Origin: Thermoplasmatota archaeon
GTDB lineage: Archaea > Thermoplasmatota > E2 > DHVEG-1
Reading direction: 5' to 3'
Assembly: GCA_029907305.1 (NCBI GenBank)
Contig: JARYMC010000001.1
Location: 1-38,526, forward strand
DNA length: 38,526 nt
This document shows positions 1 to 38,526 of this stretch, piece after piece. The position numbers were made by a program, and so were the translations under genes. The notes below the pieces were generated by a model, which was not told the DNA's origin, did no database searches, and saw only the letters and a program-made list of their open reading frames with translations. Every line of letters begins with the position of its first letter. The first letter of the stretch is position 1.

Positions 1-1
1 G

Positions 2-610
2 GCAAACAAGTTCAACCCAGATAACACAAACAAAGAAGACTTCAAAATAAACCAGGATGAAACGATCAAGGTAGACATGATGCACCTCACAGGCATAAAA
101 TTCAACTACACAGAAACCAGTGAGCTACAAATACTAAAAATGCCATACAAGGGAAACGACCTATCAATGATAATAATATTACCAAAAGAAAACAACATCA
201 CCCTAGCTGAGTCAGAGCTGAACCACGCAAACCTAGTAAACTGGATCAACAACCTAGAAGAAACAGAGATAAACATAAACATACCAAAATTCAAATTCGA
301 AACAGAATACAACCTAAACAACATCCTAATTGACATGGGGATGAAAGACGCATTCACACCAGACATCGCAGATTTCTCAGGGATGGATGGAACAAAATAT
401 TTGTACATAAGCAATGTTTTACACAAAGCATTCGTAGAGGTAAACGAAGAAGGAACAGAAGCAGCAGCAGCCACAGGCGTCATAGTAGTAACAAAAGCTA
501 TCGATAAAACATTTAACGCAGACCACCCATTCATATTTTTAATTCAACACGAAGAAACAGGTGCGATAATATTTATGGGAAAAATCATGAAACCAACAAC
601 AGCGGAATAA
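2..610 (+). CDS. Serpin (serine protease inhibitor), C-terminal part; N-terminus lies upstream of the window
   Basis: Frame is open from the window edge (ANKFNPDNT...). Serpin hinge/reactive-centre loop 'EVNEEGTEAAAATGVIVVTKAIDK' is followed by 'FNADHPFIFLIQHEETGAIIFMGK'. Counting from the hinge places Lys at P1. Confidence 0.85.
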   Translation, partial: ANKFNPDNTNKEDFKINQDETIKVDMMHLTGIKFNYTETSELQILKMPYKGNDLSMIIILPKENNITLAESELNHANLVNWINNLEETEININIPKFKFETEYNLNNILIDMGMKDAFTPDIADFSGMDGTKYLYISNVLHKAFVEVNEEGTEAAAATGVIVVTKAIDKTFNADHPFIFLIQHEETGAIIFMGKIMKPTTAE

Positions 611-625
611 AAAAAAGTTTTTTTT
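609..625. terminator. A8-G-T8 palindrome between convergent genes (candidate bidirectional oligo-T terminator)
   Basis: 'aaaaaaaagtttttttt' lies exactly between the serpin stop (610) and the HAD gene stop (628). Oligo-T tracts are archaeal termination signals. Confidence 0.35.
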
Positions 626-627
626 GG

Positions 628-1368
628 TTACAGAAAACGTTCAATAAAAGGCAAAACCTTGGTGAGATCCCTTGACTCAACAACATAATCAGCAGCTTTG
701 CGTACACAATCATCCCCGGGGTTAAAAGCTATACCAACACCACAAACCTCAAACATGGGTATATCAAAACAAGAGTTACCAACAGCAACAAAATCACCGA
801 GTGGAACCTTACTCAACTCAGAAAGCCTCCTAACACTTTTTTCCTTATACATAAGCCTGACATTCAACAAACCCTCACCAGTAACAAAACCATTCCTATC
901 AGTTTTCAAACCATTAGCAAAAACATAGTCTATACCAGTCTTACTAGCAACACGTCTAGCAAGTATATCAAGACCAGCGCTAACAATAGCAGTCTTAACA
1001 CCATGCTCTCTGAGTGAACCTATGCATTCCCTCGCACCCCTCATAAGAGGAACACCAGACAAGATCTCAACAAGCATATCAAAACTAACAGGTTTACCAT
1101 CAACACGCCAGAGAGAAACATCCCTTCTTATAAACTCCAAATCATCAATCTCACCCCTAAGATAAGCATCCACTGATCTATCATTTGAGCTACCAAAAAA
1201 ATCATGGACATACCTCCATGAACTAATAGTATCAGTGAGTACACCATCCATGTCAAAAACCACTAGTTTTATTTTACCAGGTTTCTTCTTGTTAACACTA
1301 TTAAACCCCCTAGTTCTCCTATAACAATGATACCTACACTTCTGATCCATCAGAGTGGACACATACAA
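628..1368 (-). CDS. HAD-superfamily phosphatase (phosphoserine-phosphatase-like, HAD-IB)
   Basis: Motif I 'VVFDMDGVLTD', 'TAIVSAGLD', and a motif IV-like 'AVGNSCFDIPMF'. True start is uncertain (ATGs at aa 1 and 7). Confidence 0.75.
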   Translation of the reverse strand: MYVSTLMDQKCRYHCYRRTRGFNSVNKKKPGKIKLVVFDMDGVLTDTISSWRYVHDFFGSSNDRSVDAYLRGEIDDLEFIRRDVSLWRVDGKPVSFDMLVEILSGVPLMRGARECIGSLREHGVKTAIVSAGLDILARRVASKTGIDYVFANGLKTDRNGFVTGEGLLNVRLMYKEKSVRRLSELSKVPLGDFVAVGNSCFDIPMFEVCGVGIAFNPGDDCVRKAADYVVESRDLTKVLPFIERFL

Positions 1369-1496
1369 AAACTGTTATAATAACTTTTATAGATCCCCCT
1401 CATCGAACCCAGCCATAAGGTAAACATTTATAAACCAATAAATATATTATTATATTTGGGTTTTAAAATTATATGAAAAGGGGGTTATAAGATTAT

Positions 1497-2912
1497 ATGA
1501 AAAAACATAACCTAAAAAAAACCATGGTTTTAACCATAGTCACATTATTTTTAACACTCACCTTAACACCAGCTGTGAACTCAGCAAACACAGATGATAT
1601 AGCAGAACAAACAAACGATGAACAACAAAACTATAAACTACTAATAATAACACCAAAAAAATTTGTTAGATCACTAAAACCCTTGATAAACCATAAAAAC
1701 AGCGTCGGCGTACCAACAAAAATTGTTACACTAGACCAGGTGTACAAACAAATAGGGAACCAAGGGCGAGACAAACCAGAGAAAATAAAATACTACATAA
1801 AAAATGCTGTTGAAACATGGGGGATCAAATACGTTATGCTAGTAGGCAACTTCAGGCAGATGCCAATAAGGTATGTTTACAACGATGAACCATGGCCTGT
1901 TTTCCCTGAACCCTGTTTCATCTCAGAGTTGTACTACGCTGACATATATGACAAAAACGGTAATTTCTCAAGCTGGAATTCAAATGATAACGATAAATTC
2001 GGGGAATGGAAAGGGGATGAGGCACAAGACAGGGACATAGATCTTTACCCAGATGTCTATGTTGGTAGGCTAGCATGTAGGACAAACCTTGAAGTAAATA
2101 TCATGGTAAACAAAATTATAACATATGAGATAACAACATATGGTAAAGAATGGTTTAAAACAATGGTTGTAGTCGCAGGTGACACCTACCCACCAGGTTC
2201 ATACAATTTTTCAACAGATCCTTTCGAAGGAGAAGAAAACACAAAGACTGCTCTGAGCTACATGTCTGGTTTCAAAAATGTTACACTATGGACATCAACC
2301 GGTACATTAACAGGTCCAAAGGATGTGATAAACGCTGTAAACAATGGCTGTGGTTTCCTGTTTTTTGATGGACACGGCAACCCTGGTATATGGAGTACGC
2401 ATCCACCAAATGACAAAAAAAACTGGACAAACGGGTTATTAAAAACTGATATTAGTAAACTGAAAAACAAAAACATGTACCCGATTTGTGTTGTTGGTGG
2501 TTGTCATAACAGCCAGTTTGATGTAGCGTTAACAAACCTGCTGAAATACGGGAAAAAAGCAATTTATTACTCAACCTGGTTACCAGAGTGCTGGAGTTGG
2601 AAGATGACATGTAAAATAGCTGGTGGGAGCATAGCAACCATTGGTAACACAGGACTTGGTATGACAAAAGAGGATAAAACCAGTCAATCAGGAGCAAGTG
2701 ATTTCCTGGACTCACAGTTCTTCTATGAATACGGTATAAACGGAACCGATATACTTGGTGAGGTATGGGGAAAAGCTATAACAAACTACCTAAACAACTA
2801 CCCGATAAACTGGTCAACACCAGCAGGCTGGGATTATGCGTATGATGCGAAAACAGTGCAACAATGGACACTGTTTGGTGACCCTAGCCTGAAGATAGGT
2901 GGGTACTCATAA
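1497..2912 (+). CDS. Secreted peptidase, C25 (gingipain)-like family
   Basis: N-terminal signal peptide (MKKHNLKKTMVLTIVTLFLTLTLTPAVNSA). C25-like pattern 'YKLLIITPKKF..LKPLINHK', 'KYVMLVGN', 'YPDVYVGRL', 'FFDGHGNPG', 'VVGGCHNSQF'. Confidence 0.5.
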   Translation: MKKHNLKKTMVLTIVTLFLTLTLTPAVNSANTDDIAEQTNDEQQNYKLLIITPKKFVRSLKPLINHKNSVGVPTKIVTLDQVYKQIGNQGRDKPEKIKYYIKNAVETWGIKYVMLVGNFRQMPIRYVYNDEPWPVFPEPCFISELYYADIYDKNGNFSSWNSNDNDKFGEWKGDEAQDRDIDLYPDVYVGRLACRTNLEVNIMVNKIITYEITTYGKEWFKTMVVVAGDTYPPGSYNFSTDPFEGEENTKTALSYMSGFKNVTLWTSTGTLTGPKDVINAVNNGCGFLFFDGHGNPGIWSTHPPNDKKNWTNGLLKTDISKLKNKNMYPICVVGGCHNSQFDVALTNLLKYGKKAIYYSTWLPECWSWKMTCKIAGGSIATIGNTGLGMTKEDKTSQSGASDFLDSQFFYEYGINGTDILGEVWGKAITNYLNNYPINWSTPAGWDYAYDAKTVQQWTLFGDPSLKIGGYS

Positions 2913-2974
2913 CAAAAAGAATTTATTTAGTCAATCTAAAACTCTGCTCTTACTCATTTTTTTTTTGATTGTAG

Positions 2975-3919
2975 AAAAAAATATTTCAACATCAGCCTCA
3001 AACAAAAAAGAGTATTTTTTCAAAAGAAAAAAGAGAATATTTTAAAAAATGGTTATCACCGCGCGTTAAAGAATTAAGATACAGTCTACATCTAATTAGA
3101 CAAAGCCCCCTCGCAATTGTTGGGATTATAATTATTCTTATACTTGTTCTTACAGCAATATTAGCCCCATTTATCAGCCCATATGGCCCTGAGGAACACA
3201 TATGGGGTGAAAGTAAACAACCGCCGAGTTGGAAACACCTTTTTGGAACTGATGAAACCGGTGGAGATGTTTTCACAAAGGTTTTATGGGGTGCCAGAAT
3301 CTCTATAGAAATTGGTTTAATTGTTGTATTAGGTGGTCTGGGTTTAGGAATAATACTTGGTGCTTTTGCTGGATACTATGGTGGATATATAGATGAATTT
3401 ATTATGAGAATTACAGACATCTTTCTCTCAATCCCATATCTAATCCTTGTGATGGGGTAGGCAGCGATCCTTGGGAAAAGTATCGAAAACGTTATGATAG
3501 CAATGATTGTTGTTTGGTGGCCAGCTTATACTCGTTTAGTTCGAGGGCAAATTCTCTCTGTAAGAGAAAACCAATATGTAGAAGCAGCTAAATCTGTAGG
3601 GGCTGGAGACACTAGAATTATCTTTAGGCATATTTTACCAAATTCTATGGCACCACTTATTGTTCAAACAACCATGGATCTTGGTAATGCAATTCTTACT
3701 GCTGCTGGATTAAGTTTTTTAGGTTTCGGGGCTGGACCAGGAGCTGCTGAATGTGGTAGAATGGTTTCAGATTCAAGAAATTATTTTATGAACTATCCTT
3801 GGATGATGATATCCCCTGGACTTGCTATATTCATCACAGTGTTAGGTTTTAATTTATTAGGTGACGGACTTAGAGACATTCTGGATCCAGGGTTAAGAAG
3901 AGGAGGAGGAAAAACATAA
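2975..3919 (+). pseudogene. oppC: Oligopeptide/dipeptide ABC permease (OppC/DppC type), disrupted
   Basis: One continuous permease frame ('LAPFISPYGPEE', 'LFGTDETGGDVF', 'EAAKSVGAGDTRIIFRHILPN') carries an in-frame TAG at 3458-3460. There is no ATG/GTG/TTG before the first TM segment after the upstream stop at 2972-2974. No oppA/oppB partner is present. Confidence 0.8.
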
Positions 3920-4958
3920 CAACAGAGCCGCTTCTTTCAGTAAAAAACCTCAAAGTGTATTTCGAAACCTATGAAGGAACTGTGAAAGCTTTAGAAGATG
4001 TTAGTTTTGAGATACATCCTGGGGGAAACCATTGGACTGGTTGGTGAAACAGGATGCGGGAAAAGTGTCACTGCTCTTGCTGTCATGCGTTTAATACCTG
4101 ACCCTCCTGGTAAAATTGTTAGTGGTGAAATACGATTTAACAATGAAAATCTCCTATTAAAAAGCAACGAAGAAATGCAACATATAAGAGGAAAAGACAT
4201 CTCAATGATTTTCCAAGAACCTATGACTGCGTTAAACCCAACTTATACTACTGGAGATCAAATAGCCGAGGTTATTTTATTGCATGAGGCATTAGAAGGT
4301 GATGGAAAAAAACCTTTTGGTAGATTGAGTCTCATCAAAAAAAGACAGCAACAGAAAAAAGCAAAAAAGATAGCGTTGGAAAAAGCGATCGAAGCACTGA
4401 AAATGGTTAAAATACCAAATGCTGAACAAGTAGCGAAACAGTATCCTCATGAGTTAAGCGGAGGGCAGCGACAAAGAATCGGCATTGCACGTGCCCTCGC
4501 TTTAAATCCAGATTTCATTATACTGGATGAACCAACTTCAGCATTAGATGTTTCAGTTCAAGCATAAATTCTCAATTTGTTAAAAGATCTCCAGAAAAAA
4601 TTTGGGTTAACCTATTTATTCATCACCCATAATTTAAGTGTAATCAAACATATCAGTGACAGGATAGCTATAATGTACGCAGGGAAAATCGTTGAACTAG
4701 CGCCAACACAAGAAATATTCAAAGAACCTATACATCCTTACACTAAAGCTTTGCTTTCAGCAATTCCTATCTCAGATCCTCTTTTAAAAAGAAAATTTAT
4801 TCCCTTGAAAGGAGAAGTCCCTAGTCTTGTGAACCCCCTCTGGTTGTAGATTCCATCCCAGATGCGACCATGCGACCCAGCAATGTTCAAAAGTTGAACC
4901 GGTTTTAAAGGAAGTAAAAAAAGACCATTATGTAGCGTGTTTACCCAATGAAACTTAG
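3916..4958 (+). pseudogene. oppD: Oligopeptide ABC transporter ATPase (OppD/F type), multiply disrupted
   Basis: N-terminus '[34 protein letters not shown]' has ATA where ATG is expected (3916). Lesions are a frameshift in the G5 run at 4021-4025 before Walker A 'GETGCGKS', an in-frame TAA at 4565-4567 ('[15 protein letters not shown]'), and a frameshift in the C5 run at 4834-4838 before '[10 protein letters not shown]'. Final stop is at 4956-4958. Confidence 0.8.
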
Positions 4959-5145
4959 ATATCTCTTCATTAGACAAAATCTTTCAAAAAAAGAACCTTT
5001 CTGTTCTCAAAATAAAAAACAAACTCCAAGAAAAAAATCACACACAGGTTCACTATATAGGACTATGCATTATCTTTTAAAAAGAAGACGTGAAAATATC
5101 TTAAAAAGTATGATGCGACCATTGTAATAGGAAGTACTAAAATCC

Positions 5146-5340
5146 ATGTTTTTTGTTTTTGCATTGCTGATTGATACACTCATTCCACTTGAGATAATAA
5201 GGGTATTATCATCACATTGGGGGTACATTATTGCCTTACTTATCTTAGCTATATTCTTGTATGTTGAGATAAAAATTTACAGCTCATTTTGGGGTAAAAA
5301 TGGTCGTTTGTCTCTTGAAAAATACAAAGAAAACAGATAA
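5146..5340 (+). CDS. Hypothetical small membrane protein
   Basis: 64-aa ORF with two hydrophobic stretches. No recognisable family. Confidence 0.2.
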   Translation: MFFVFALLIDTLIPLEIIRVLSSHWGYIIALLILAIFLYVEIKIYSSFWGKNGRLSLEKYKENR

Positions 5341-5363
5341 AAAAAGTTAGAAAAAAAAATTAT

Positions 5364-5528
5364 TTATTGTTTTTTCCTAGCCCAGTTATAATGTCTCAAC
5401 TTACTTGACTCGCCGAAACCACAAGAAGAGCATCTCCTCTTCTGCATATGAAAAGAATGCTTGCCGCATCTTCTACAAATCGTATGGGTTTTTTTGCCGC
5501 CAAAATGGGATGATGTTCCTTTCGTCAT
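5364..5528 (-). CDS. rpl37e: 50S ribosomal protein L37e
   Basis: Not in the ORF track (54 aa). My translation is [54 protein letters not shown], with the C4 zinc ribbon typical of L37e. It sits downstream of the LSm gene, as in many archaea. Confidence 0.9.
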
Positions 5529-5543
5529 AAATCAAACCTCATT

Positions 5544-5762
5544 TCATGGGGATATATAGATTATGTTGTCCCCTCTAACAATAATTGTATCATGTTTCTT
5601 AACTAATTCACCGTTCACTATCTCATCAGCTTTTTTGAGAACAAGGTTCATATGAGGGACATCATAGCCATCAAGGATACCATGATATCCTCTTCCGCCT
5701 CTAAGCTCCACGATGACACGGTTGTTTAAACTAGCATGCAGTATCTTAAGTGGTTTTTCCAT
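5544..5762 (-). CDS. Sm-like (LSm) RNA-binding protein
   Basis: 'MEKPLKILHASLNNRVIVELRGGRGYHGILDGYDVPHMNLVL...IIVRGDNIIYISP' carries the Sm1/Sm2 motifs. I prefer the ATG at 5762 over the longer track ORF (5816). Confidence 0.85.
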   Translation of the reverse strand: MEKPLKILHASLNNRVIVELRGGRGYHGILDGYDVPHMNLVLKKADEIVNGELVKKHDTIIVRGDNIIYISP

Positions 5763-5870
5763 AAAGCTACCTAGGAAACACGAAATAAACATCGTGTTTA
5801 TAAGGATTTGGGACAAACAAAAAAAAAATGTTGGGTAACATTAAAAAACAAAAAAGAACTAACATGTCTG

Positions 5871-6368
5871 ATGCTGATAAAAGTAAAAAACAGACACACC
5901 CTTAGAAGAAAAGAAGTTAGAGAACTAATAAATAAAATCAGGGAAAACTACAACCACAGTTTTTTTGAAGAAAAATCAAACGTTGAAACAGGTGAGGTAG
6001 AGGGATACAAACTGGTTTTTGTTGAAAACAAACCAGTTTTTATGTTCCATGAAAAACAGATGGTTTTTACACTAAACGGTATTAATAAATTTAGGCCACA
6101 AGAAAAATTTGTAGTAGTTGACATGGGCGCTGTCAGTTTTGTCACAAGCGGGGCAGACGTTATGGCACCAGGAGTAGTTGATGCTGATAAAGGGATTTCC
6201 GAGGGTGATCCTGTTTGGGTGTGCGATGAGAAACACAAAAAACCCCTAGCGGTAGGTTTCGCTTTGATGAACAGTGAACAGATGATAAAAGAAGAGAAAG
6301 GAAAAGCAGTGAAAGTGGTTCATTACGTTGGTGACAGGCTGTGGAATCTTATCTCCAAAAGTTTATAA
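5871..6368 (+). CDS. PUA-domain RNA-binding protein
   Basis: C-terminal PUA-like segment 'VVVDMGAVSFVTSGADVMAPGVVDADKGISEGDPVWVCDEKHKKPLAVGFALM'. The ATG at 5871 is preferred over the TTG at 5808. Confidence 0.65.
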   Translation: MLIKVKNRHTLRRKEVRELINKIRENYNHSFFEEKSNVETGEVEGYKLVFVENKPVFMFHEKQMVFTLNGINKFRPQEKFVVVDMGAVSFVTSGADVMAPGVVDADKGISEGDPVWVCDEKHKKPLAVGFALMNSEQMIKEEKGKAVKVVHYVGDRLWNLISKSL

Positions 6369-6409
6369 ACACAAATATATTTTAGAGTAATGGTTAAAAT
6401 AATCAGGAG

Positions 6410-6790
6410 ATGAAAACCGGTATGGGAATTGTCAATAAGATTTGGGGTGATAAAAAATCAGGTGATGTTGGAGGATATATTGATCTAGAGAAATATGTGG
6501 AATCAACTGAAACACCACAGCCAGCAAAAATGTATGTGAGGGTTGGTGAGATACAGAGGTATGAGGATTTAAAAGAGCTCACAGATTATGTTTACGGCGG
6601 GAATGTTTTAATACTTGATTTCGCTGCTATAGCCGAGGAAGAGGTTATTCTAAAAAGGATAACAAATGACCTAAAAAAACTTGTTTCTGAGATAAATGGT
6701 GACATCGCAGGGATTGGGAATAACTTGATGATTGTTTCTCCATCTGGTGTGAAAATAGATAGAAGGAAAATACGTGGGAGATACGCTTAA
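6410..6790 (+). CDS. sepF: Cell-division protein SepF-like (DUF552)
   Basis: ~125 aa. Core 'YVRVGEIQRYEDLKELTDYVYGGNVLILDF...LKRITNDLKKLVSEINGDIAGIGNNLMIVSPSGVKI' matches the SepF pattern. Confidence 0.7.
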   Translation: MKTGMGIVNKIWGDKKSGDVGGYIDLEKYVESTETPQPAKMYVRVGEIQRYEDLKELTDYVYGGNVLILDFAAIAEEEVILKRITNDLKKLVSEINGDIAGIGNNLMIVSPSGVKIDRRKIRGRYA

Positions 6791-6820
6791 AAAAAAATTT
6801 TAGTTTTCTTAATTCTTTCA

Positions 6821-6881
6821 CAAAAAAACCTTCTTTTTTTTTCTTTACTCCTTTTTTTTACCAAAAAAAACTTTTTTTTTT
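6821..6881. terminator. Two A-tract/T-tract palindromes (candidate bidirectional terminators)
   Basis: 'caaaaaaaccttcttttttttt' (6821-6842) and 'ccaaaaaaaactttttttttt' (6861-6881) lie between sepF and the convergent tRNA. Confidence 0.3.
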
Positions 6882-7085
6882 CTAGTCTGCCCCTTTTATC
6901 CTAATGTTTTTTTTTTAAATAAAAAGGTGGGGGGAATCTGGGTTATGTGGATGGTAAGATGAAAGGAAGAAATAAAAACTCCAGATCCCTCTAAGTTATA
7001 CTTTGTAGAATGTAATATATATAGTTATCGTGTAAAATTATCTTTTTGAAAAAAAACACACACACAAAAAAAAAACCAAGAAAAA

Positions 7086-7157
7086 CGGACCCACGGGGAT
7101 TCGAACCCCGGTATCCGGCTCCGAAGGCCGGAAGGATATCCACTACCTCATGGGCCC
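7086..7157 (-). tRNA. tRNA-Arg (anticodon UCG)
   Basis: Reverse complement is GGGCCCAUGAGGUAGUGGAUAUCCUUCCGGCCUUCGGAGCCGGAUACCGGGGUUCGAAUCCCCGUGGGUCCG. It has a 7-bp acceptor stem (one G-U), an anticodon stem CCGGC/GCCGG with loop CUUCGGA, and a T-arm CGGGG-UUCGAAU-CCCCG. No encoded CCA. Confidence 0.85.
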
Positions 7158-7358
7158 TTATATAAAATTCTCAGAAGCACAATTACCACATACTGATATA
7201 AACTTGTCTAAAAAAAATTATTCAACACCAACTAATAAAAGAAAGATATAAATAGACATAAAATATATCAAACCAAGCGGATGAGATGCATACATAGAAG
7301 TTGAAAATGTTAGTTATATTTAGATTAAACTAAACAAAGTCTTAAAGATGTAACAGGG

Positions 7359-10611: not shown

Positions 10612-10615
10612 AAAA

Positions 10616-27981: not shown

Positions 27982-27987
27982 TTGTTT

Positions 27988-28611: not shown

Positions 28612-28614
28612 CGC

Positions 28615-29772: not shown

Positions 29773-29824
29773 ACAATATAGAATACTACAAATACTAGAT
29801 GTCTTGTATTCAAAAAAAAAAAAC

Positions 29825-29875
29825 AAAAAATTTTTTTTATAAAAACCTTTTTTTTAGGTAAAAAAACTTTTTTTT
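29825..29875. terminator. Cluster of three A-tract/T-tract palindromes
   Basis: 'aaaaaatttttttt', 'aaaaacctttttttt' and 'aaaaaaactttttttt' lie downstream of the regulator gene. Confidence 0.3.
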
Positions 29876-29892
29876 CTAAATAGAAAGCAACG

Positions 29893-29900
29893 TTTATAAG
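29893..29900 (+). promoter_or_regulatory. TATA-box candidate for valS
   Basis: 'tttataag' ends 41 nt upstream of the ATG at 29941. Confidence 0.3.
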
Positions 29901-29940
29901 TAATAATCTAGTTTGACCTCCACAAAACCATTAGGGTAAC

Positions 29941-32673
29941 ATGGAGAGTAGAATGGCTAATTACAACCAGAAAAAAATCGAGGAAAAATGGCAGAAGAAA
30001 TGGCAGGAGATGAAGATACATCATTTCGACCCAGCTAGTGATAAACCTGTCTATAGTATAGATGTACCACCACGTTATGCATCAGGGCCGCTACACGCAG
30101 GTCATGCTGTACACTACACGCATATTGATTTCGCTGCGCGTTATAAACGTATGCGGGGGTACAATGTTTTCTTCCCACTCTGTTTTGATGTAAATGGTAT
30201 ACCTATCGAGGAGCGTGTTGAGAGGCAACTTAACATTACACGTAAAGACATTGATAGGCATGAGTTCACAAAACTGTGTTCAGAGTTTGCTGAAAAAAAC
30301 ATAAAAACCATGACAGACCAGTTCACAATACTTGGTGAGAGCATGGATCCTACAATTTATTATCAGACAAACGCTGAGTACTACAGGCGCCTAACACAAA
30401 TCTCTTTCATCGAGTTGTACAAAAAAGGCTATATCTATAAGGGTGAGTTCCCAGTTAACTGGTGCCCTAGGTGTATGACAGCAATGGCTGATGCAGAAGT
30501 AACATACAACAACAGGACAACTAAACTGAACACAGTAAAGTTTTATTTCACAGAGAATCAACCAGAGCAGATACTGAAATACAGAAACATTGGCAGAGAC
30601 AAAAAAGGAGTGTATGTCGAGATTGCTACAACAAGACCTGAGATGCTACCATCATGCCAGATCGTAGCTGTGCACCCAACAGATGAAAGAGCACCATGGC
30701 TTGTTGACAAAACACTAGAAGTACCCTTATTTGGTAAAAAAGTCAAGATCGTTGAGGATGATGCTGTCGACCCTGAGTTCGGCTCAGGTGTGGTAATGGT
30801 CTGCACAGTCGGTGACAAAGAAGACCTCAAATGGGTTTTCAAATACAAGCTACCACTTGAGATGAGCATAGACGAAGAAGGACGAATGACACAGATATGC
30901 GGTAAATACAAGGGTATGAAAATAGAGGAAGCAAGAAAAGCAGTTATAGAGGATCTAAAGAAAAAAGATATTCTAATCAAACAAGAGCCTCTTGAGCAGA
31001 ACGTTGGTGTATGCTGGCGATGCAAAACACCAGTAGAGTTCATAAACGCTAAACAATGGTTTCTGAAAACCATACAATTCAAACAAACTGTGCTAGACGC
31101 AAGCAACAAAATGAGATGGTACCCAGAGTTCATGAAAATAAGATTAGAAGACTGGGTGAAATCCCTTGAGTGGGACTGGGTTATATCAAGACAGAGGTAC
31201 TTTGCTACACCAATACCACTATGGGAATGCGAGAAATGTGAACACGTTGTTTTAGCTAGAATAGAGGACTGCTACATAGACCCAACAAAAGACAAACCAC
31301 CTGTGGAAAAATGCCCGAAATGCGGCGGTAAACTAAAAGGATGCGAGGATGTTTTTGACACATGGATGGACTCATCCATATCACCATTATATAACACCTA
31401 TTGGTATAGAGATGAAGAGAAATTCAAAAAACTATACCCTATGTCACTCCGCCCACAAGCACATGACATAATCAGGACATGGGCTTTCTACACGATACTG
31501 AGATGCACACTGTTAACAGACAAAGAACCATTTGAAAACATAATGATGGGAGGCTTCATACTATCAGAAGATGGTACACCAATGCATGCAAGCCTAGGAA
31601 ACGTGATAGACCCCCTGGATGTGATAAAAGAATACGGCTCCGATGCCTTTAGATGCTACGCAGCAAGCTGCGCACTAGGAGAAGACAACCCATTTAGATA
31701 CAAGGATGTGATAAGAGGAACAAGGCTACTACGTAAACTATGGAACGTAGAAAACTTCATATCAAACATAACAAAAAAAGGTAAACCAAAAAAAACAGAG
31801 CTCATAGACATCGACAGATGGATATTAACAAAATACAGTAAACTAGTAAAAAAATGTACAGAACAAATGGATGCTTTCAACTACTCACAGGCGATGAAAG
31901 AAACAGAGTACTTCCTATGGCATGAACTAGCTGACCACTACATAGAGATGGTTAAATCACCATTGTACAAAAAAGAAAACACAGAGAGCATAAAATACAC
32001 ACTATACACACTAGGTTTAGGGATCCTGAAACTTTTCGCACCATTCTTCCCACACATAACAGAAGAGATATACCAGCAGCATTACAAAAAAAATGAGGGA
32101 TTCGAGAGCATACATATATCACCATGGCCTGAACCATTATTCATCGATGAGGAAAAAGAAAAAGCAGGAGAAACCATCAAAGACTATATATCAAAGATGA
32201 GGTCCTGGAAAAGCGAAAAAGGCATAGCACTAAACGCACCACTGGAAGCATACGCAACATACTCAGACAAATCATTTATAGAGAAACTAAAAACAAGTAG
32301 CCCAATAATAAAATCAACATTAAACCTACCAGATGAACACGAGTTCATAGCTGGGAAACCAGACACACAAGATAGGATAACAGCTGTGAAACCAGTTTAC
32401 TCAAAGATAGGGCCATTGTTCAAAAAAGACAGCAAAAAGATAAATGAATGGATAACAACACACCAAAAAGAGTTAATCAAAAAAATAGAGGAAAAAGGTG
32501 ACATAAAATGGTCAGATATACCTACATTAGAAAACAGTGTACCTGATGAGTATTTAATAAAAAATGGTTACTTGGAAGTTAAGAAAGAGGCTTTGCTAAA
32601 GGGTAAAAAAGATAGGGTTATATTAAAGTTGGATGATTTCTACATAGAAGTCTCAGGGAGGTACGTAAAATGA
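29941..32673 (+). CDS. valS: Valyl-tRNA synthetase
   Basis: 'YSIDVPPRYASGPLHAGHAVHYTHIDFAARYKRMRGYNVFFPLCFDVNGIPIE', 'PVNWCPRCMTAMADAEV', 'EIATTRPEMLPSCQIVAVHP', 'WVISRQRYFATPIP'. The KMSKS position reads 'PMHASLGNVIDP'. Confidence 0.85.
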   Translation: MESRMANYNQKKIEEKWQKKWQEMKIHHFDPASDKPVYSIDVPPRYASGPLHAGHAVHYTHIDFAARYKRMRGYNVFFPLCFDVNGIPIEERVERQLNITRKDIDRHEFTKLCSEFAEKNIKTMTDQFTILGESMDPTIYYQTNAEYYRRLTQISFIELYKKGYIYKGEFPVNWCPRCMTAMADAEVTYNNRTTKLNTVKFYFTENQPEQILKYRNIGRDKKGVYVEIATTRPEMLPSCQIVAVHPTDERAPWLVDKTLEVPLFGKKVKIVEDDAVDPEFGSGVVMVCTVGDKEDLKWVFKYKLPLEMSIDEEGRMTQICGKYKGMKIEEARKAVIEDLKKKDILIKQEPLEQNVGVCWRCKTPVEFINAKQWFLKTIQFKQTVLDASNKMRWYPEFMKIRLEDWVKSLEWDWVISRQRYFATPIPLWECEKCEHVVLARIEDCYIDPTKDKPPVEKCPKCGGKLKGCEDVFDTWMDSSISPLYNTYWYRDEEKFKKLYPMSLRPQAHDIIRTWAFYTILRCTLLTDKEPFENIMMGGFILSEDGTPMHASLGNVIDPLDVIKEYGSDAFRCYAASCALGEDNPFRYKDVIRGTRLLRKLWNVENFISNITKKGKPKKTELIDIDRWILTKYSKLVKKCTEQMDAFNYSQAMKETEYFLWHELADHYIEMVKSPLYKKENTESIKYTLYTLGLGILKLFAPFFPHITEEIYQQHYKKNEGFESIHISPWPEPLFIDEEKEKAGETIKDYISKMRSWKSEKGIALNAPLEAYATYSDKSFIEKLKTSSPIIKSTLNLPDEHEFIAGKPDTQDRITAVKPVYSKIGPLFKKDSKKINEWITTHQKELIKKIEEKGDIKWSDIPTLENSVPDEYLIKNGYLEVKKEALLKGKKDRVILKLDDFYIEVSGRYVK

Positions 32674-32771
32674 AGAAAGGGACACTGAAATCATGGCTTT
32701 TTAAAATCTTTGTGCTACTAATAGTATTTTTTATGATCGCAGCAGGATTTGTAGTAATCTTTTGGAAATAA
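32670..32771 (+). CDS. Possible 33-aa single-TM micro-protein overlapping the valS stop (ATGA)
   Basis: My translation is MKKGTLKSWLFKIFVLLIVFFMIAAGFVVIFWK. The 4-nt ATGA overlap suggests translational coupling. No homology evidence. Confidence 0.25.
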   Translation: MKKGTLKSWLFKIFVLLIVFFMIAAGFVVIFWK

Positions 32772-32835
32772 AAACTTGATTTTCTCGATAGTTTTTTAAA
32801 TAAGATTTTAATTCAACGGTTCGGAGGCTATATTT

Positions 32836-33432
32836 ATGGAACAAAAAAATATATTGGCAAACCCGGCACCATTAGGTTTGATGGGTTTCGGGATGACGAC
32901 TGTACTGTTGAACATACACAACGCAGTTCCCACAGAATATAAACTAACATCGATGATTCTTGCTATGGGAATATTTTATGGTGGACTAGCACAAATAATC
33001 GCTGGGATACTTGAATATAGGAGAGGCAACACATTTGGTGTAACAGCTTTTACATCCTATGGTTTGTTCTGGTTGAGTCTTGTCGGGATTTTAATCATCC
33101 CTGAGATAATCACTAGTGGAACCTACGCAGTAAGCACAACAAAACCATTCCTAGCTTGGTACTTCTTCATGTGGGGTTTCTTCACAATGATGATGTTCAT
33201 CGGCGCATTAAAAAAGAACTGTTCACTATCATTTGTCTTCGGAAGCCTATTCATATTGTTCTACTTACTAGCATTGCGCGACTGGGGGTACATAACAGGT
33301 GATGCAGCAAACCTCATAGGCTACGAGGGAATAATCTGTGGTCTCAGCGCCATATACCTCGCAATGGCAGAAGTATTAAACGAGGTGTATGGAAAAACCA
33401 TTCTACCAATCGGAAAACCCTTAATAAAATAA
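32836..33432 (+). CDS. GPR1/FUN34/YaaH-family acetate/succinate channel (SatP-like)
   Basis: Family signature '[18 protein letters not shown]', six hydrophobic segments, and '[16 protein letters not shown]'. Confidence 0.85.
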
Positions 33433-33434
33433 AT

Positions 33435-34421
33435 TCATAGTTCAATCAACTGATATGAGGATGATCCTAAACCGATCTCCTCACCATACCTTATTTGTTT
33501 AAACGGGTCCACCTCAGTTTCCTTCTGAAAAACATCTTTTTTAACATCATTTATTAGATCAAGCGATGCCTTATCTATAGCAACAGGATCACTAGAAACA
33601 AGGAAACCGATATCAGGCACAACTATAGGTCCTGGGAAAGGATCACAGTCACAGCTACCAGCCATACGCCTAAGCTCATTTATGTAAATCACATTCTTAT
33701 CAGCAACACAAGCATATGCTGCTAGAACAAGAAGATACTGCAAATCAATATCAACATGTTTAATAGCCTTGTTTTTACAGACATCAACACAGACACCACA
33801 ACCAAAACAAGCCCTGTTACTGAAACTCCATTTATCCCTAGATACCTTTATAGCATCAAAAGGACACATCTCAGCGCACACACCACAAAAAGTACAAGCA
33901 TCCTTATTATAAACAGGTCTGCTACCATGATGCATCCTCTTTTTCGTCTCCCTAGTTACACCACCCATACCAAAGTTTTTTATCGCACCACCAAGACCAG
34001 TCTGAATATGACCCTTCACATGAGAAACAGCAACAATATGTGTAGACTCAAACAGCTGTGTAGCAACATCAAAAACCCGGTTTTCAACAGTAACAGGAAC
34101 ACCGGTGTCACCAATAACAACATCGCAACCAATCTTATTCTTAGAAAAACCATGCATCCTAGCAAGCTTCTCATAACCAGTTTTTGTGCTACGCAAACCA
34201 GGGTAAGCAACAGTTGTATCAAACAAAAAAGGCTCAGCACCAAAACCTTTTATTTCATCAACAACCATTTTAACAAAATCAGCTGGTGGATAATTCTGGT
34301 TTTTCACCTCACCCATATGAAGCTTAACAGGAGTTTTTTTACCAGCAAAACCATCCATGTTAAAACTAGATAAAGCCTCATGCAGTTTATTTAAATCCTT
34401 GAAAAAAACAACCTTACTCAT
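33435..34421 (-). CDS. DUF362-family protein with an inserted 2x[4Fe-4S] ferredoxin domain
   Basis: 'CTFCGVCAEMCPFDAI' and 'CFGCGVCVDVCKNKAI'. The ATG at 34421 forms an ATGA overlap with the upstream gene's stop. The track ORF extends to 34439. Confidence 0.75.
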   Translation of the reverse strand: MSKVVFFKDLNKLHEALSSFNMDGFAGKKTPVKLHMGEVKNQNYPPADFVKMVVDEIKGFGAEPFLFDTTVAYPGLRSTKTGYEKLARMHGFSKNKIGCDVVIGDTGVPVTVENRVFDVATQLFESTHIVAVSHVKGHIQTGLGGAIKNFGMGGVTRETKKRMHHGSRPVYNKDACTFCGVCAEMCPFDAIKVSRDKWSFSNRACFGCGVCVDVCKNKAIKHVDIDLQYLLVLAAYACVADKNVIYINELRRMAGSCDCDPFPGPIVVPDIGFLVSSDPVAIDKASLDLINDVKKDVFQKETEVDPFKQIRYGEEIGLGSSSYQLIEL

Positions 34422-35716
34422 CCAACGATTTTCTCCCATTTCTTTAGTTTAAGAACGCTACCGAGTGACCCGCCACCTTTTATCTCCTCACGGATGCGGT
34501 TCTCCTGCTCCTTAACATCCAAAGCCCTGTTAGCTATTTCCTGTGCAATCTCCTGTGGCACAACAACAACACCAGAGTCGTCACCAATTATCCAGTCACC
34601 GGTTCTAACAATCTGGCCACCACATTTTATCTCAGCACCTATCTCACCGAAACCCTTTGGTTCACCAGCATTAGAAGAAACATGCCTAGAGAAAACAGGG
34701 AAATCCATCTTAACAATATCATCAAGGTCTCTTATCGCACCATCAACCACAACACCACTAAGACCCTTGATTTTAGCACTCCAAGTAGCGAGCTCGCCCC
34801 ACACAGCAGTCCTACCACCATTAACATCAACAACTAAGACATCCCCCTTCTCAGCTTTATCGATGCCTTGTATTGGTTTAGCCCAATCACCATCAATCGT
34901 ACATACAGTGAGCGCCTTTCCAACCATATGAAAACCTAGTTTAACAGGTCTTATACCATGCATAGCACCATGTTTATGCATAGCATCAGAGATGTTTGGT
35001 GTTGAAACCTTCATAAAAGCCTCTCTAAGCTCTGTCTTATCATATTTTTTATGAAGCTCAGTAGGAACAGGTTTTTTCTCAGAAACAGCTTTTTTTATCT
35101 GTTTAGCAGCCTTGGTTACATCCTTAGCCTTGGTTATAGCACCACCAACTATTATTATGCTAGCACCTGCTTTAACAACATCAGCAACAGTCTCACTGTT
35201 CAACCCACCAGCAACAGCAACAGGTAGACTAGTTGATTTAACAACAGAACGAAGCACATCAAACGGTTTTTTACCCATCATCTGCTCATCTATACCAACA
35301 TGGATACAAAGATAATCAACACCAAATTTCTCCATCTGTTTAGCACGCCTAAGCTTATCTCTGACACCAATAAGGTCAACCATGATTTTTGTACCATATT
35401 TACGAGCAGACTTCAAAGCATCAATTATAGTGGCATCATCAGAGACACCAAGTATGCAAACAACATCAGCTCCTGCTTTTGCAGCCATCTCAGTCTCAAG
35501 AGCACCAGTATCCATGGTTTTCATATCAGCAACAACAATGTTCTTAGGGAAACTCTGTTTAAGCCTCCTTATAACATCCATGCCCTCGCTTTTTATCAGA
35601 GGTGTACCAGCCTCAAGCCAACAGTTTGGGTCACCTTTTACCGCATCCCGAGCTATAACTAGGGCTCTATGAGCATTCAGAAGATCAAGCGCCACTTGAA
35701 TAGTTGCCTCCCGCAT
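34418..35716 (-). CDS. Fusion protein: 3-hexulose-6-phosphate synthase (OMPdecase-like) N-domain plus RraA/DlpA-like C-domain
   Basis: N-domain: 'IQVALDLL...WLEAGTPLIKSEGMDVIRRLKQSFP...VADMKTMDTGALE...HVGIDEQ...VAVAGGL'. C-domain: 'ISDAMHKHGAMHGIRPV...GDVLVVDVNGGRTAVWGELATWSAKIKGLSGVVVDGAIRD'. Confidence 0.8.
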   Translation of the reverse strand: MREATIQVALDLLNAHRALVIARDAVKGDPNCWLEAGTPLIKSEGMDVIRRLKQSFPKNIVVADMKTMDTGALETEMAAKAGADVVCILGVSDDATIIDALKSARKYGTKIMVDLIGVRDKLRRAKQMEKFGVDYLCIHVGIDEQMMGKKPFDVLRSVVKSTSLPVAVAGGLNSETVADVVKAGASIIIVGGAITKAKDVTKAAKQIKKAVSEKKPVPTELHKKYDKTELREAFMKVSTPNISDAMHKHGAMHGIRPVKLGFHMVGKALTVCTIDGDWAKPIQGIDKAEKGDVLVVDVNGGRTAVWGELATWSAKIKGLSGVVVDGAIRDLDDIVKMDFPVFSRHVSSNAGEPKGFGEIGAEIKCGGQIVRTGDWIIGDDSGVVVVPQEIAQEIANRALDVKEQENRIREEIKGGGSLGSVLKLKKWEKIVG

Positions 35717-35810
35717 AGCAACCTGAATAAAACAACCTAGTTAAAAAACATTAGGGTGAAGATATAAAGAAAAGCTTAATTATCCCAACAGGCTAATACA
35801 AAGCTAGTTT

Positions 35811-36617
35811 ATGATGAAAAACGAGAAAATCTCTAAGTTCCACAAAAGATCAAAAGAAGATTTAGAGGATTTCATAAAAAAACTAGAGCTGCAAGCACTA
35901 GAAACAGCAGAAGAAAGACTACCACTCTACATGGAAGTTGGACTAAAAGAGGCAAAAATTATCTTAGATGTAGGCTGCGGATCAGGGATAGTAACAAGAG
36001 ATATAGCACGCCTAACCAAAGGCAAGGTAATAGCAGTAGACGGCTCAAAAGATATGCTAAAAGTAGCAAAAAATATTCTAAACAACCACAAAAACGTGGA
36101 ACTATGCATGGGCAGCGCAGAAAATCTACCATTCTGCGATAACACATTTGATATTGTAACATGTAACCTACTATTAATGTGGGTTAACAAACCTCAAAAT
36201 GTTGTCAATGAGATGACACGTGTAACCAAAAAAGGTGGAACAGTACTAGCAACCCTTGAGCCAGACTATGGTGGCAAACTACATTGGCCTGAGAACAAAA
36301 AGGTTGATCCTATATTTGCTGGAGAAGCTATAAAGAAAAAAGGTGGAGACCCACACATAGGCAGAAAACTCCGCTACCTTTTTGTGAAAGCAGGTTTAAA
36401 AACCAAGGTTGGAATAGGAAACACCCGTATATGGAGCTGCGAAGAAGACAAAGCATATTACCTACACTCCAGAGACTTCTACATAAAAACCCTGCGTGAA
36501 GCTAGTTTAACCGAAAAGGAGATAGATAAATGGGAATACGAATACCTAAAATCACTGGACGAGGGTGTGCAGCTAAACTTTTTCCCACAATTCTATGCCA
36601 TAGGTAAGAAAACATAG
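35811..36617 (+). CDS. Class I SAM-dependent methyltransferase
   Basis: Motif I 'ILDVGCGSGIVTRDIA' and 'FDIVTCNLLLMWV'. Confidence 0.75.
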   Translation: MMKNEKISKFHKRSKEDLEDFIKKLELQALETAEERLPLYMEVGLKEAKIILDVGCGSGIVTRDIARLTKGKVIAVDGSKDMLKVAKNILNNHKNVELCMGSAENLPFCDNTFDIVTCNLLLMWVNKPQNVVNEMTRVTKKGGTVLATLEPDYGGKLHWPENKKVDPIFAGEAIKKKGGDPHIGRKLRYLFVKAGLKTKVGIGNTRIWSCEEDKAYYLHSRDFYIKTLREASLTEKEIDKWEYEYLKSLDEGVQLNFFPQFYAIGKKT

Positions 36618-36661
36618 AGTTTATAACCATATATATAGATTCTATTTTTGGAAACAAAAAT

Positions 36662-37519
36662 ATGACCGCTAAGATAATCTATGGTAAACCAATAGCAGAA
36701 GATATACGTAAAAAAATAAAAAAAGAAATCACAATTCTACAAAAAAAACATGGGGTTAAACCAAGTATTACCACAATCAAAATTGGGGAAGACCCATCAT
36801 CAGAACTCTATCTAAAATTAAGAGACAAAGCCTGTGAAGAAGTAGGAATAAAATCAAGACATCTAGTTTTTCATAAAAACGCCCCTGAAAAAAAGGTTTT
36901 AGAATCAATAAAAAAATTAAATGATGACAACAGCATTCATGGTATCCTAATTCAATACCCTGTGCCAAAACATATATCCCCGGATAAACTTATGAAAACA
37001 GTTGATCCCAGTAAAGATGTTGAGGGTTTCAACCCAAAGAACATGGGTGGACTCTTGATTGGTGATGAACACATAGTATCATGCACACCCTTGGCTGTTT
37101 TAACTATACTAGAATACGAAAAAACCGTTCTTAAAAGCAAAAATGTAACCATCGTTAATCATAGCAACGTAGTCGGTAAACCATTGGCAGCTCTTTTCCT
37201 TAACAGGAATGCAACCGTCTCTGTTTGTCATGTTTACACAGATGATATAAAGAAGTATACAAACAAGGCGGACATCCTTGTGACAGCTACTGGTAAACCA
37301 AAACTTATAACAAAAGATCATGTGAAAAACAATAGTTTCGTGATAGATGTTGGCATCAACAAAACAAAAAACGGTTTATGCGGTGACGTAGATTTTGATT
37401 CCGTTAAAGAAAAAATAGGAAAAATCACACCTGTACCTGGTGGTGTAGGACCAGTTACAGTTGCTTGTTCATTGATAAACATGATTAAAACATTTAAAAA
37501 CTGTGTTGAGGAAAAATAA
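36662..37519 (+). CDS. folD: Bifunctional methylenetetrahydrofolate dehydrogenase/methenyl-THF cyclohydrolase
   Basis: 'AKIIYGKPIAEDIRKKIK', 'PSITTIKIGEDPSSELYLKLRDKACEEVGI', 'HGILIQYPVPKHI', 'DVEGFNPKNMGGL', 'TPVPGGVGPVTVA'. Confidence 0.9.
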   Translation: MTAKIIYGKPIAEDIRKKIKKEITILQKKHGVKPSITTIKIGEDPSSELYLKLRDKACEEVGIKSRHLVFHKNAPEKKVLESIKKLNDDNSIHGILIQYPVPKHISPDKLMKTVDPSKDVEGFNPKNMGGLLIGDEHIVSCTPLAVLTILEYEKTVLKSKNVTIVNHSNVVGKPLAALFLNRNATVSVCHVYTDDIKKYTNKADILVTATGKPKLITKDHVKNNSFVIDVGINKTKNGLCGDVDFDSVKEKIGKITPVPGGVGPVTVACSLINMIKTFKNCVEEK

Positions 37520-37522
37520 GAT

Positions 37523-37912
37523 ATGAACAAATACAGTGTTTTATCTTTTATGTGTTTCATTGTTGGTATAGCATTTTTTGTAATAGGTTTTCTAACCGGC
37601 GAAATACAAGGAGGAATCCTTGTTGTATTCCCATTTATTGTTGGCTCTGGTTTATATGCGTTAGCAGGTTTTATCATGATTTCCATTGCGATATTATTGT
37701 TTATTTTTGGATTTACTAGAAATATACAAACAGAGGAAAACTACTATGATCTTGGTGAACCAGCTAAAAAATCATCTGTGAAAGGCGGTGGGGTTGTTCT
37801 CATTTGGCCAATACCAATTGTTTTTGGGTCAAACTGGAAAATAGCAATCCTACTCATGATTCTAAGTATTATACTTATAGTAACCATGTTCTTTTTCCTA
37901 AGATTCATATAA
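37523..37912 (+). CDS. Small archaeal membrane protein (DUF131/TIGR00304-like)
   Basis: TM helices plus the 'GGGVVLIWPIPIVFGS' motif. Confidence 0.55.
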   Translation: MNKYSVLSFMCFIVGIAFFVIGFLTGEIQGGILVVFPFIVGSGLYALAGFIMISIAILLFIFGFTRNIQTEENYYDLGEPAKKSSVKGGGVVLIWPIPIVFGSNWKIAILLMILSIILIVTMFFFLRFI

Positions 37913-37925
37913 AAAAAATTTTGGC

Positions 37926-38526
37926 TCATGTCCGTAAGTTGTCGGATAGAATAATTTCAAACCATTGATCTTTTTCATTCAGCAGGAACGCAAGAAAATC
38001 AAGATACCCTTGGAGGTAGTTCTTTGATACTCCCCGGTATCTTCTGAGGTAACTCCTAATAAAAACCATTCCTGTTTTTCACAATTGTTTACATGAATGT
38101 CTCCATTTGCCCATTCATGATTTCCATTGGTTAACTATGTGATGTTCTTGTACTTCTGGAATCTTCTCAGCAATCCCTTCATAGATGGTGTATTCATCGG
38201 TATTCATAATCACATCCCCGTTGATCAAACTTTGAAGCTTTCCAATAAAATGTTGGAAGGTTTTTTTCATTACTTTGTATCTAACCCTCGGGGTGCTCCT
38301 CCCCCTTTTTACGATCGTAAGCACTGGTGGTTTATCTTTCCAGTCATGTGCCTCGTCCTCGTGTTCGTAATCCTCTTTTTCAGGCACCCGGGTGTTTTTT
38401 TATCCCTTTAGCACCTGCATGAACATAGGCTTCATCCAATTCAATAATTCCTTCAATGGTGATTTTATGAGCATGATATGACGCATGTTCATGAGCTCTA
38501 TGAACAAAATCAAGAACTGAATCATA
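37926..38526 (-). mobile_element. IS1595-family (ISXO2-like DDE) transposase remnant, frameshifted; continues beyond the window
   Basis: Minus-strand fragments lie in at least three different frames. They read 'YDSVLDFVHRAHEH...IEGIIELDEAYVHAGAKGIKKHPGA*', then 'PVLTIVKRGRST..INGDVIMNTDEYTIYEGI...HHIVN', then 'NHEWANGDIHVNNCE', then 'IRSYLRRYRGVSKNYLQGYLDFLAFLLNEKDQW...*' (stop at 37926-37928). Confidence 0.7.

Follow-up and report, generated by a model that had tools for sequence, protein, structure and literature searches.

In Borrelia, Treponema and Chlamydia, replication-associated keto/amino skew splits codon usage between the leading and the lagging strand. The heavy and light strands of vertebrate mitochondrial DNA are asymmetric through deamination of the displaced strand, and in kataegis and at meiotic hotspots strand-coordinated mutation surrounds double-strand breaks. 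Here we describe a 38.5-kb stretch (37% G+C) from an uncultured Thermoplasmatota archaeon (contig JARYMC010000001.1 of assembly GCA_029907305.1, positions 1 to 38,526; the whole stretch is called the window), which carries a real and heritable mosaic of DNA-strand compositional asymmetry. The skew is of the classical keto/amino type, with G+T on one strand and A+C on the other. As in Borrelia, Treponema and Chlamydia, dialects of G/T-ending and A/C-ending codons are set by the DNA strand and spill into amino-acid usage. However, the skew of those bacteria flips only at the origin and the terminus, over hundreds of kilobases and with moderate amplitude, whereas here it switches every 0.3-6 kb, also inside genes, and reaches up to 0.95-0.99. 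Compared with a chirochore, the window shares the orientation-independent skew of G+T against A+C but not the restriction of switches to origins and termini (~100 kb to Mb apart): it has 13 switches in 38.5 kb, seven of them inside open reading frames (ORFs), and one island of 340 bp.

The asymmetry was measured as M3, the share of A+C on the plus strand among third codon positions other than those of Met and Trp, over 33 genes and 10,973 sites, nearly every one of which offers a synonymous choice between A/C and G/T. Blocks that are A+C-rich on the plus strand are called M blocks and those that are G+T-rich K blocks. Gene names come from Pfam calls on identical proteins in sister contigs. Penalised segmentation of M3 divided the window into 14 segments of about 0.3-8 kb each, with boundaries at 1802, 7373, 7949, 8960, 9299, 11933, 12416, 20820, 22775, 27290, 29391, 30792 and 36922, and reproduced the block boundaries that a first-pass annotation had listed by eye. 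The segments are as follows (aa, amino acids).

1-1802: A+C-rich, M3 0.80; 3' part of the serpin gene (+), HAD hydrolase gene (-), first ~100 codons of the C25 peptidase gene (+).
1805-7373: near-balanced, M3 0.55; remainder of the C25 peptidase gene, Opp-type ABC-transporter fragments, L37e (-), Sm (-), PUA, SepF, tRNA-Arg.
7376-7949: A+C-rich, M3 0.78; Lys/Glu-rich N-terminal extension of the ATPase.
7952-8960: mildly G+T-rich, M3 0.42; within the ATPase gene.
8963-9299: extremely A+C-rich, M3 0.94 (0.97 over 9039-9278); Walker-A-to-catalytic core of the T2SSE-type pilus ATPase.
9302-11933: mildly G+T-rich, M3 0.42; 3' end of the ATPase gene, TadB, TadC, start of a 1145-aa secreted protein.
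11936-12416: G+T-rich, M3 0.22; Hint (intein-like) domain of the 1145-aa protein.
12419-20820: balanced on average, M3 0.50; sub-structure at 14800-15550 (~0.26-0.34), 18732-19101 (~0.33-0.39) and 19104-19584 (~0.64-0.71).
20823-22775: A+C-rich, M3 0.79 with peaks of 0.91; 3' end of the gene for a 1814-aa protein, small ORFs of 196 and 170 aa.
22879-27290: near-balanced, M3 0.58; 1055-aa protein, Rpp21, 5' part of the S19e gene.
27293-29391: G+T-rich, M3 0.37 (eIF6 0.24-0.38); 3' part of the S19e gene, PDCD5-like, L39e, L31e, eIF6.
29397-30792: near-balanced, M3 0.59; regulator gene and 5' third of valS.
30795-36922: A+C-rich, M3 0.72 with a dip at 32440-33110; 3' two-thirds of valS (+), 3' half of the SatP gene (+), DUF362/4Fe-4S (-), HPS-RraA (-), methyltransferase (+), 5' part of the FolD gene (+).
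36925-37894: near-balanced, M3 0.54.

The T2SSE ATPase belongs to a type-IV-pilus-like gene set with two T2SSF membrane proteins, the giant secreted proteins carry Hint, beta-helix and PKD domains, valS encodes ValRS, and the 3' gene set also includes DUF131.

The mosaic is large. Plus-strand A+C per 500-nt window runs from 0.39 to 0.69 and M3 per 80-codon window from 0.23 to 0.91, with a standard deviation (sd) of 0.148 against a binomial 0.056. Among genes, C/(C+T) spans 0.12-0.77 and A/(A+G) 0.37-0.88, and coding-strand M3 is lowest in the HAD gene (0.21) and 0.80 in the serpin gene and p196. All seven 60-nt lines that had been counted by hand proved exact, and the A+C-rich blocks listed by eye have an M3 of 0.746 inside against 0.496 outside, every block falling within 0.68-0.94. 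The contrast drawn between two Lys/Glu-rich tracts was also confirmed, with AAA 45, AAG 3, GAA 28 and GAG 4 in the ATPase N-terminus and AAA 17, AAG 18, GAA 8 and GAG 14 in the L31e tail. On the other hand, the statement that the rest is G+T-rich was too broad: the rest is balanced on average (M3 0.496; all-site A+C 0.507), truly G+T-rich pockets lie at about 7952-8960, 9302-12416, 14800-15550 and 27293-29391, and there are at least three compositional levels in place of the two states first assumed.

Global shuffling of the sites left 1 segment, and synonymous shuffling within gene and amino acid left 8-9. Switches inside intact ORFs, also claimed from the first inspection, were borne out by seven internally heterogeneous genes (p<=0.003): those for the ATPase, the 1145-aa protein (big1145), the giant ORF, valS and SatP at p<=0.0005 (SatP with its best split at 33117, p=0.0005), p332 at p=0.001, and C25 at p=0.003 with its best split at 1853. 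The heterogeneity of valS is real, but its M3 rises gradually, with no switch at 30480 where one had been placed. Amino-acid composition alone, that is, Lys/Asn/Thr-rich against Gly/Val/Phe-rich regions with minus-strand membrane proteins mimicking A+C-rich blocks, does have some share in the pattern, as ~60% of the total A+C variance comes from amino-acid content together with gene orientation. However, the blocks persist in third-position and within-amino-acid tests, and the amino-acid shift itself follows the direction of the DNA bias, with Lys, Asn, Thr and Pro up in M blocks and Val, Gly, Ser and Arg up in K blocks. The synonymous residual has an sd of 0.046, which is ~3 times the 0.016 expected from a single codon table. 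Thus, composition as the whole explanation is refuted by the within-amino-acid shuffles and the synonymous residual, and we give it hardly any credence. The first-pass annotation had named, as the outcome that would speak against it, skew plots without discrete blocks beyond amino-acid composition; this residual and the segmentation and heterogeneity tests show that such blocks are present.

The mosaic is shared by other assemblies. Assemblies of the same population (JGI 3300038743 contigs and GCA_050410955.1), found by exact-protein look-up, match the window with 99.7-100% identity at essentially all boundaries; one 8.9-kb stretch, for example, has 1 single-nucleotide difference. We refer to sampled related loci, ~200 in all and from sediment Thermoplasmatales metagenome-assembled genomes, by L-numbers; L134-L136, L217 and L218 are loci with sequence identical to the window at the boundaries. 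The nearest distinct relative, L055, is syntenic, comes from a different sample and has ~80% nucleotide identity. Its M3 profile correlates with that of the window (r=0.66 in 60 orthologous 40-codon bins) despite heavy synonymous divergence, 25-55% of third positions differing at identical residues. The polarity of block 1-1802, which is continuous across both opposite-strand junctions, has the same sign in L055 but is weaker.

These data bear on a chimeric or mis-joined metagenome assembly mixing related populations, one of the causes first suggested. In its favor, the ATPase gene of the window joins two paralogues across an exact repeat and a foreign-looking patch (described below), and a few further short, highly divergent patches occur. 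However, 13 of the 14 segments and all other boundaries are identical in the JGI 3300038743 contigs and GCA_050410955.1, L055 from another sample has the same profile, the phenomenon recurs in assemblies from different assemblers, and the parents of a chimera would already need extreme skews. Because the boundaries are identical elsewhere and the profile is common to L055, we reject chimeric assembly as a general cause and regard it as very improbable.

The ATPase junction at 9042-9416 is the sole exception to this reproducibility of boundaries. The single ATPase of the window (7359-9761, 800 aa) combines, as a hybrid, two tandem paralogues that both occur (772/793 aa and 550 aa) in two other same-population assemblies: its sequence is that of sister-assembly paralogue 1 as far as 9301 and that of paralogue 2 from 9417. 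Two features lie at the junction.

9042-9301 (+): 260-bp stretch 100% identical to both tandem paralogues, the hybrid junction.
9302-9416 (+): 115-bp patch, 27 of 114 sites of which differ from both sister paralogues.

The closest match of the patch is paralogue 2 of L055, with 87% identity, and the right edge of the skewed core block coincides with the start of this 23%-divergent patch between otherwise identical assemblies. The hybrid make-up indicates that recombination, or the assembler, joined the paralogues through the skewed block, so that the hybrid is either a real unequal-crossover deletion or an assembler/repeat collapse. An exact look-up found no record of the hybrid protein.

Differences among the same-population assemblies are few, clustered in patches, and affect all codon positions. 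Patches of 10-25% divergence from otherwise identical assemblies lie at 18784-19075, 19906-19938, 20782-20800, 32238-32304 and 26647-26669; such patches may have been imported or may reflect assembly differences at repeats. Of nine divergent patches, two fall no more than 25 nt from an M3 boundary (post hoc p about 0.045).

Among the ~200 related loci, most are nearly flat (sd 0.06-0.08, median 0.07), and a minority equal or exceed the window in mosaicism. Strong local skews occur in L008, L002, L112, L116, L128 and L055, with M3 extremes of 0.05-0.97. For example, L008 has an M3 of 0.05-0.15 over kilobases of the gcvP and ATPase genes and of 0.8-0.97 over the RFC gene and a convergent gene; L128 has the gcvP and RFC polarity of L008 but the opposite ATPase polarity. 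The gcvP1/gcvP2 operon with the RFC small-subunit gene (L008 2541-8390, L128 2-5356) shows the strongest skews seen (plus-strand M3 of 0.06-0.2 and 0.9-0.97 in L008), and its switch, at the divergent spacer between gcvP and RFC, is conserved in both loci.

The claim of a strand property, as opposed to simple codon preference, holds: the pattern crosses gene orientation, and both Leu first positions and intergenic DNA follow the blocks. Three strongly skewed minus-strand genes have a coding M3 of 0.21-0.31, equal to 0.7-0.8 on the plus strand and continuous with their plus-strand neighbors. Three of the four opposite-strand junctions in the window deviate clearly on both sides, all strand-like, and the fourth, SatP/DUF362, has the same sign on both sides (M3 0.79/0.64). 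Across all strongly mosaic loci, junctions with clear deviation on both sides are strand-like in 8 cases and coding-like in 2; in wider samples junction correlations lie between about zero (-0.02) and 0.47, and none is clearly negative as a coding-level property would need. When strand and coding were compared by correlation in weakly skewed relatives, signs were mixed, and the result is clear only in strongly mosaic loci. In plus-strand genes, C makes up 0.70 of the first positions of Leu YTR codons within M blocks against 0.35 within K blocks (Fisher p=4e-8), and this preference is inverted (0.32) in minus-strand genes within M blocks. Intergenic A+C tracks polarity weakly (about 0.57-0.60 in M blocks against 0.44 in K blocks), codon positions 1+2 also follow it more weakly, covarying with M3 (r=0.40, p=1e-5), and GC3 is unchanged by class (M 0.33, mid 0.31, K 0.31). 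Taken together, the Leu first positions, intergenic DNA, positions 1+2, junctions and constant GC3 point to a DNA-level, strand-asymmetric force.

The two states had been said to differ by transitions, which is true by construction in two-fold codons; four-fold sites, in contrast, mainly set A (0.60-0.73) against T (0.55), and also C against G. Such a pattern is the keto/amino skew, and cytosine deamination on opposite strands could be its source. Plus-strand genes occur in both states (coding M3 0.30-0.84), valS, the serpin gene and the small ORFs being A/C-ending and eIF6, L31e and L39e G/T-ending, and polarity runs through convergent and divergent pairs. Transcription-associated asymmetry, which would enrich the coding strand in G+T and reverse the sign with gene orientation, is ruled out by the presence of both states among plus-strand genes.

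The most extreme block of the window is the ATPase core at 8963-9299, which uses close to one codon per amino acid. Over 161 homologues M3 varies more in the core columns (sd 0.157) than in the flanks (sd 0.086), with both tails occupied. The core M3 is 0.9-0.99 in the window, L055 (both paralogues), L058, L079, L112 and L128; both paralogues of L060 are partly extreme (0.97-0.99 in the second of two bins, block mean 0.84), and L006, L008, L063, L070 and L072 are extreme in the K direction (0.05-0.2). Core and flank signs correlate (r=0.70), the core amplifying the local trend. Most relatives have two tandem ATPase paralogues, whose nucleotide identity in L055, L063, L006, L072 and L060 is 94-98% in the core against 75-80% in the flanks, and the five most alike pairs all have extreme core skew. 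That the paralogues are far more alike in the core than in the flanks indicates gene conversion. Core extremeness correlates with paralogue identity (Spearman 0.47, p=3e-4). Low synonymous divergence of the core was considered as a sign of recent transfer and set aside, being indistinguishable from saturation of codon choice. Intein-homing co-conversion was likewise rejected as the source of the core block, as the long homologues have N-terminal extensions and no Hint domain. Rfam and tRNA scans of the window detected only tRNA-Arg, so no embedded RNA accounts for the conserved core.

Two codon dialects, one for fast and one for slow translation, might be selected at the level of the transcript, with A/C-ending codons pairing in Watson-Crick manner with G34/U34 tRNAs in unstructured mRNA and G/T-ending codons being read by wobble. 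The cognate set coincides exactly with the A/C set, and the near-single codon usage of the ATPase core would suit such selection, as would the L008 GcvP and RFC genes, all A/C-rich in coding terms across their divergent junction, some coding-like correlations across lineages, and a slight A/C excess at gene 5' ends (0.513 against 0.495). However, this 5' A-rich effect, though real, is far too small to cause the blocks, Leu first positions and intergenic DNA track polarity, and minus-strand genes agree with their plus-strand neighbors on the DNA strand. Moreover, one and the same conserved core has 95-99% A/C-ending codons in certain lineages but 80-95% G/T-ending ones in others, and ribosomal-protein and eIF6 genes are written in the wobble dialect. 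The opposite polarity of the orthologous core also excludes translational codon bias with one preferred set and, together with Leu first positions and intergenic DNA, wobble/tRNA selection. Selected dialects thus seem to us an improbable cause.

The Hint domain is a second module of this kind. In L002 two adjacent paralogues that are otherwise dissimilar share it as a 433-bp exact repeat with an M3 of 0.11, whose amino-acid replacements go toward G/T. The window has a second Hint/PT-HINT domain at ~23384-23800 in another giant secreted protein, with ~72% nucleotide identity to the copy at 11936-12416, and only the first copy is strongly G+T-skewed. A different repeat lies at 25139-25862, where a 318-bp unit is repeated 2.3 times with 98% identity inside the 1055-aa PKD-repeat protein (big1055); the sister L134 encodes 838 aa instead of 1055, so the repeat copy number differs between assemblies. 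The compositional shift is localized to converted tracts in the ATPase core and Hint domain, and not in other repeats.

Our best guess, held tentatively, is that the patchwork arises and persists through short-tract recombination or gene conversion that carries a strand-asymmetric bias. Exchange would take place between tandem or dispersed paralogues, and probably also between related lineages, through recombination intermediates with a defined strand polarity. In these, changes of the deamination type may build up in the single-stranded partner, or correction in the heteroduplex may treat G·T and A·C mismatches unequally, and either way the outcome would be a strand-asymmetric conversion bias. 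Modules that are conserved and multi-copy, the ATPase core and the Hint domain among them, may recombine most and so be driven near saturation, to 95-99% A/C-ending codons or, in relatives, 90-95% G/T-ending ones. The sign would be set by which strand habitually invades or is converted and would thus differ between blocks and lineages. Against typical skews we judge an M3 of 0.95-0.99 too high for mutation bias alone, which favors a fixation bias.

Recombination or gene conversion was among the causes first suggested, and it has gained circumstantial support from the paralogue identity in the core, the Hint repeat and the hybrid junction. Several observations weigh against this reading. The correlation between extremeness and identity is partly trivial, since saturated codon choice forces identity, and L009, L057 and L001 have a paralogue identity of 0.88-0.92 yet an M3 of about 0.4. 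The conversion tract in the sister assemblies (about 8925-9461) exceeds the skewed block (8963-9299). The 318-bp repeat of big1055 is unskewed (M3 about 0.55), as are the repeats of L121 and L122, and a comparison of intra-locus repeats with background skew (n=5 passing filters) was not significant. Most blocks (serpin-HAD, valS to FolD, eIF6) consist of single-copy genes without a known recombination partner. Across weakly skewed relatives HPS against valS is coding-like (r=-0.40), signs across lineages being mixed. Conversion could also simply copy a skew of other origin. The wider proposal, that strand-asymmetric biased gene conversion or another recombination-linked fixation bias acts in some sediment Thermoplasmatota, producing near-complete A/C- or G/T-ending modules and a genome-wide kilobase mosaic of polarity, appears possible to us but doubtful. 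Since modules of opposite polarity differ at almost every third position, they could also be barriers to inter-lineage recombination.

A persistent local asymmetry of mutation could do without recombination, if one strand were habitually single-stranded or less repaired and deamination drove the exposed strand to G+T; the direction of replication from many initiation sites, R-loops and sense/antisense transcription are possible causes. The classical type of the skew, followed by all weakly constrained sites, is as expected from it. The window and L055 agree in polarity, as do L008 and L128 in the gcvP and RFC blocks, which fits a cause bound to position, and some switches lie at divergent promoters (L008 5909/6101). 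However, switches every 0.3-6 kb and inside genes, with a 340-bp island of M3 0.94 between flanks of 0.42, form a geometry that matches no replication or transcription unit. Simple sense transcription is excluded by both polarities in same-orientation genes and continuity across gene pairs. No Orc1/Cdc6-type Pfam family occurs among the annotated genes of the same-population loci, little strand-specific mutational skew is reported in archaea (PMC12999951), and an amplitude of 0.95-0.99 is very high for mutation bias. We consider local mutational asymmetry unlikely.

The blocks might instead be relics of history, left when a strong replichore-scale skew, of this lineage or of its recombination donors, was cut up by inversions, translocations and homologous replacement from relatives whose copy of the locus replicates in the opposite orientation, with tracts that have not yet re-equilibrated and no conversion bias. 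The first two causes suggested in the first-pass annotation are of this kind. Short, highly divergent imported patches in an otherwise clonal background would agree with this, as would the contig-wide mean M3 of 0.31-0.66 among relatives in which the ATPase gene is always on the plus strand, and the whole C-terminal half of the ATPase gene being M in L112 and L128 and K in L008. However, inversions cannot yield intragenic switches in intact ORFs, which the frequent rearrangement proposed by the first-pass annotation thus leaves unexplained. No relative has a uniformly extreme contig that could serve as donor, mosaics being found in the extreme lineages too. Homologous exchange between alleles of opposite polarity would be expected only very rarely, given that almost all of their third positions differ, and the likeness of the L055 profile despite heavy synonymous divergence suggests maintenance rather than decay. 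An origin as relics is, in our judgment, rather unlikely, though it and local mutational asymmetry are the rivals that still stand; we keep strand-biased recombination or gene conversion as the working explanation.

Several further features of the window were noted. An Opp/Dpp-type ABC transporter at 2913-5363 is in pieces (141-aa permease, 189-aa ABC_tran and 90-aa oligo_HPY, with non-coding gaps between) and suggests an operon in decay. The 520-nt spacer between Rpp21 and S19e contains 2.4 copies of a 37-nt unit (26638-26724). At the right end of the window, a minus-strand ORF (38115-38387) lies at the position of an IS1595-family DDE transposase called in the sister locus L134. Antisense ORFs of 100-205 aa lie in the skewed blocks (106-534, 7370-8020, 8927-9382, 30558-31133, 33756-34373, 34494-34931 and 35300-35662). 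Because antisense stops require T, or C then TA, at sense third positions, these are expected by-products and not genes.

Strand skews serve to locate replication origins, and both inferences on mutational mechanisms and models of codon usage draw on them; each of these uses presupposes that domains are large and defined by replication. For an abundant group of uncultured archaea this assumption is broken by a heritable mosaic whose scale runs from below one kilobase to kilobases, with nearly saturated conserved cores and opposite polarity in sister lineages. Skewed tracts can also mislead codon-usage-based detection of horizontal gene transfer, dN/dS estimates, origin prediction and assemblers, as in the possible collapse of the ATPase paralogues. 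A recombination-linked strand bias, if it is the true cause, would rank as a new evolutionary force on a par with GC-biased gene conversion (gBGC), with effects on synonymous sites, on amino-acid content and possibly on which lineages go on recombining.

A survey found that archaea show little strand-specific mutational skew (PMC12999951). Most of the sampled relatives, nearly flat with a median sd of 0.07, are in line with this survey, and the window and a few relatives depart from it. No known process fully explains the mosaic, and our literature search found no description of a strand-asymmetric form of gBGC or of such a skew mosaic. Hypermutation, whether kataegis-like or by a diversity-generating retroelement, was rejected, as synonymous sites are far more affected in intact ORFs and both the A/G and C/T axes shift; no reverse-transcriptase family occurs among the annotated genes of the same-population loci. 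Kataegis is nevertheless similar in its kilobase scale and in a polarity that derives from which strand is resected or single-stranded. Its clusters, however, are unselected and fall at all codon positions, whereas the changes here are filtered by selection, leave ORFs intact, are mainly synonymous and are conserved between species. Vertebrate mitochondrial DNA reaches a comparable amplitude at four-fold sites, under C-to-T and A-to-G pressure on the exposed strand, but it has a single polarity molecule-wide, graded by single-stranded time, and no mosaic. Finally, the window resembles gBGC and the concerted evolution of tandem paralogues in that its sharpest extremes, those of the ATPase core and the Hint domain, lie in converted tracts, would act like a fixation bias and are strong enough to alter amino acids. 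On the other hand, gBGC favors G/C on both strands, whereas here GC3 stays constant (0.31-0.33) and the bias lies between the strands.

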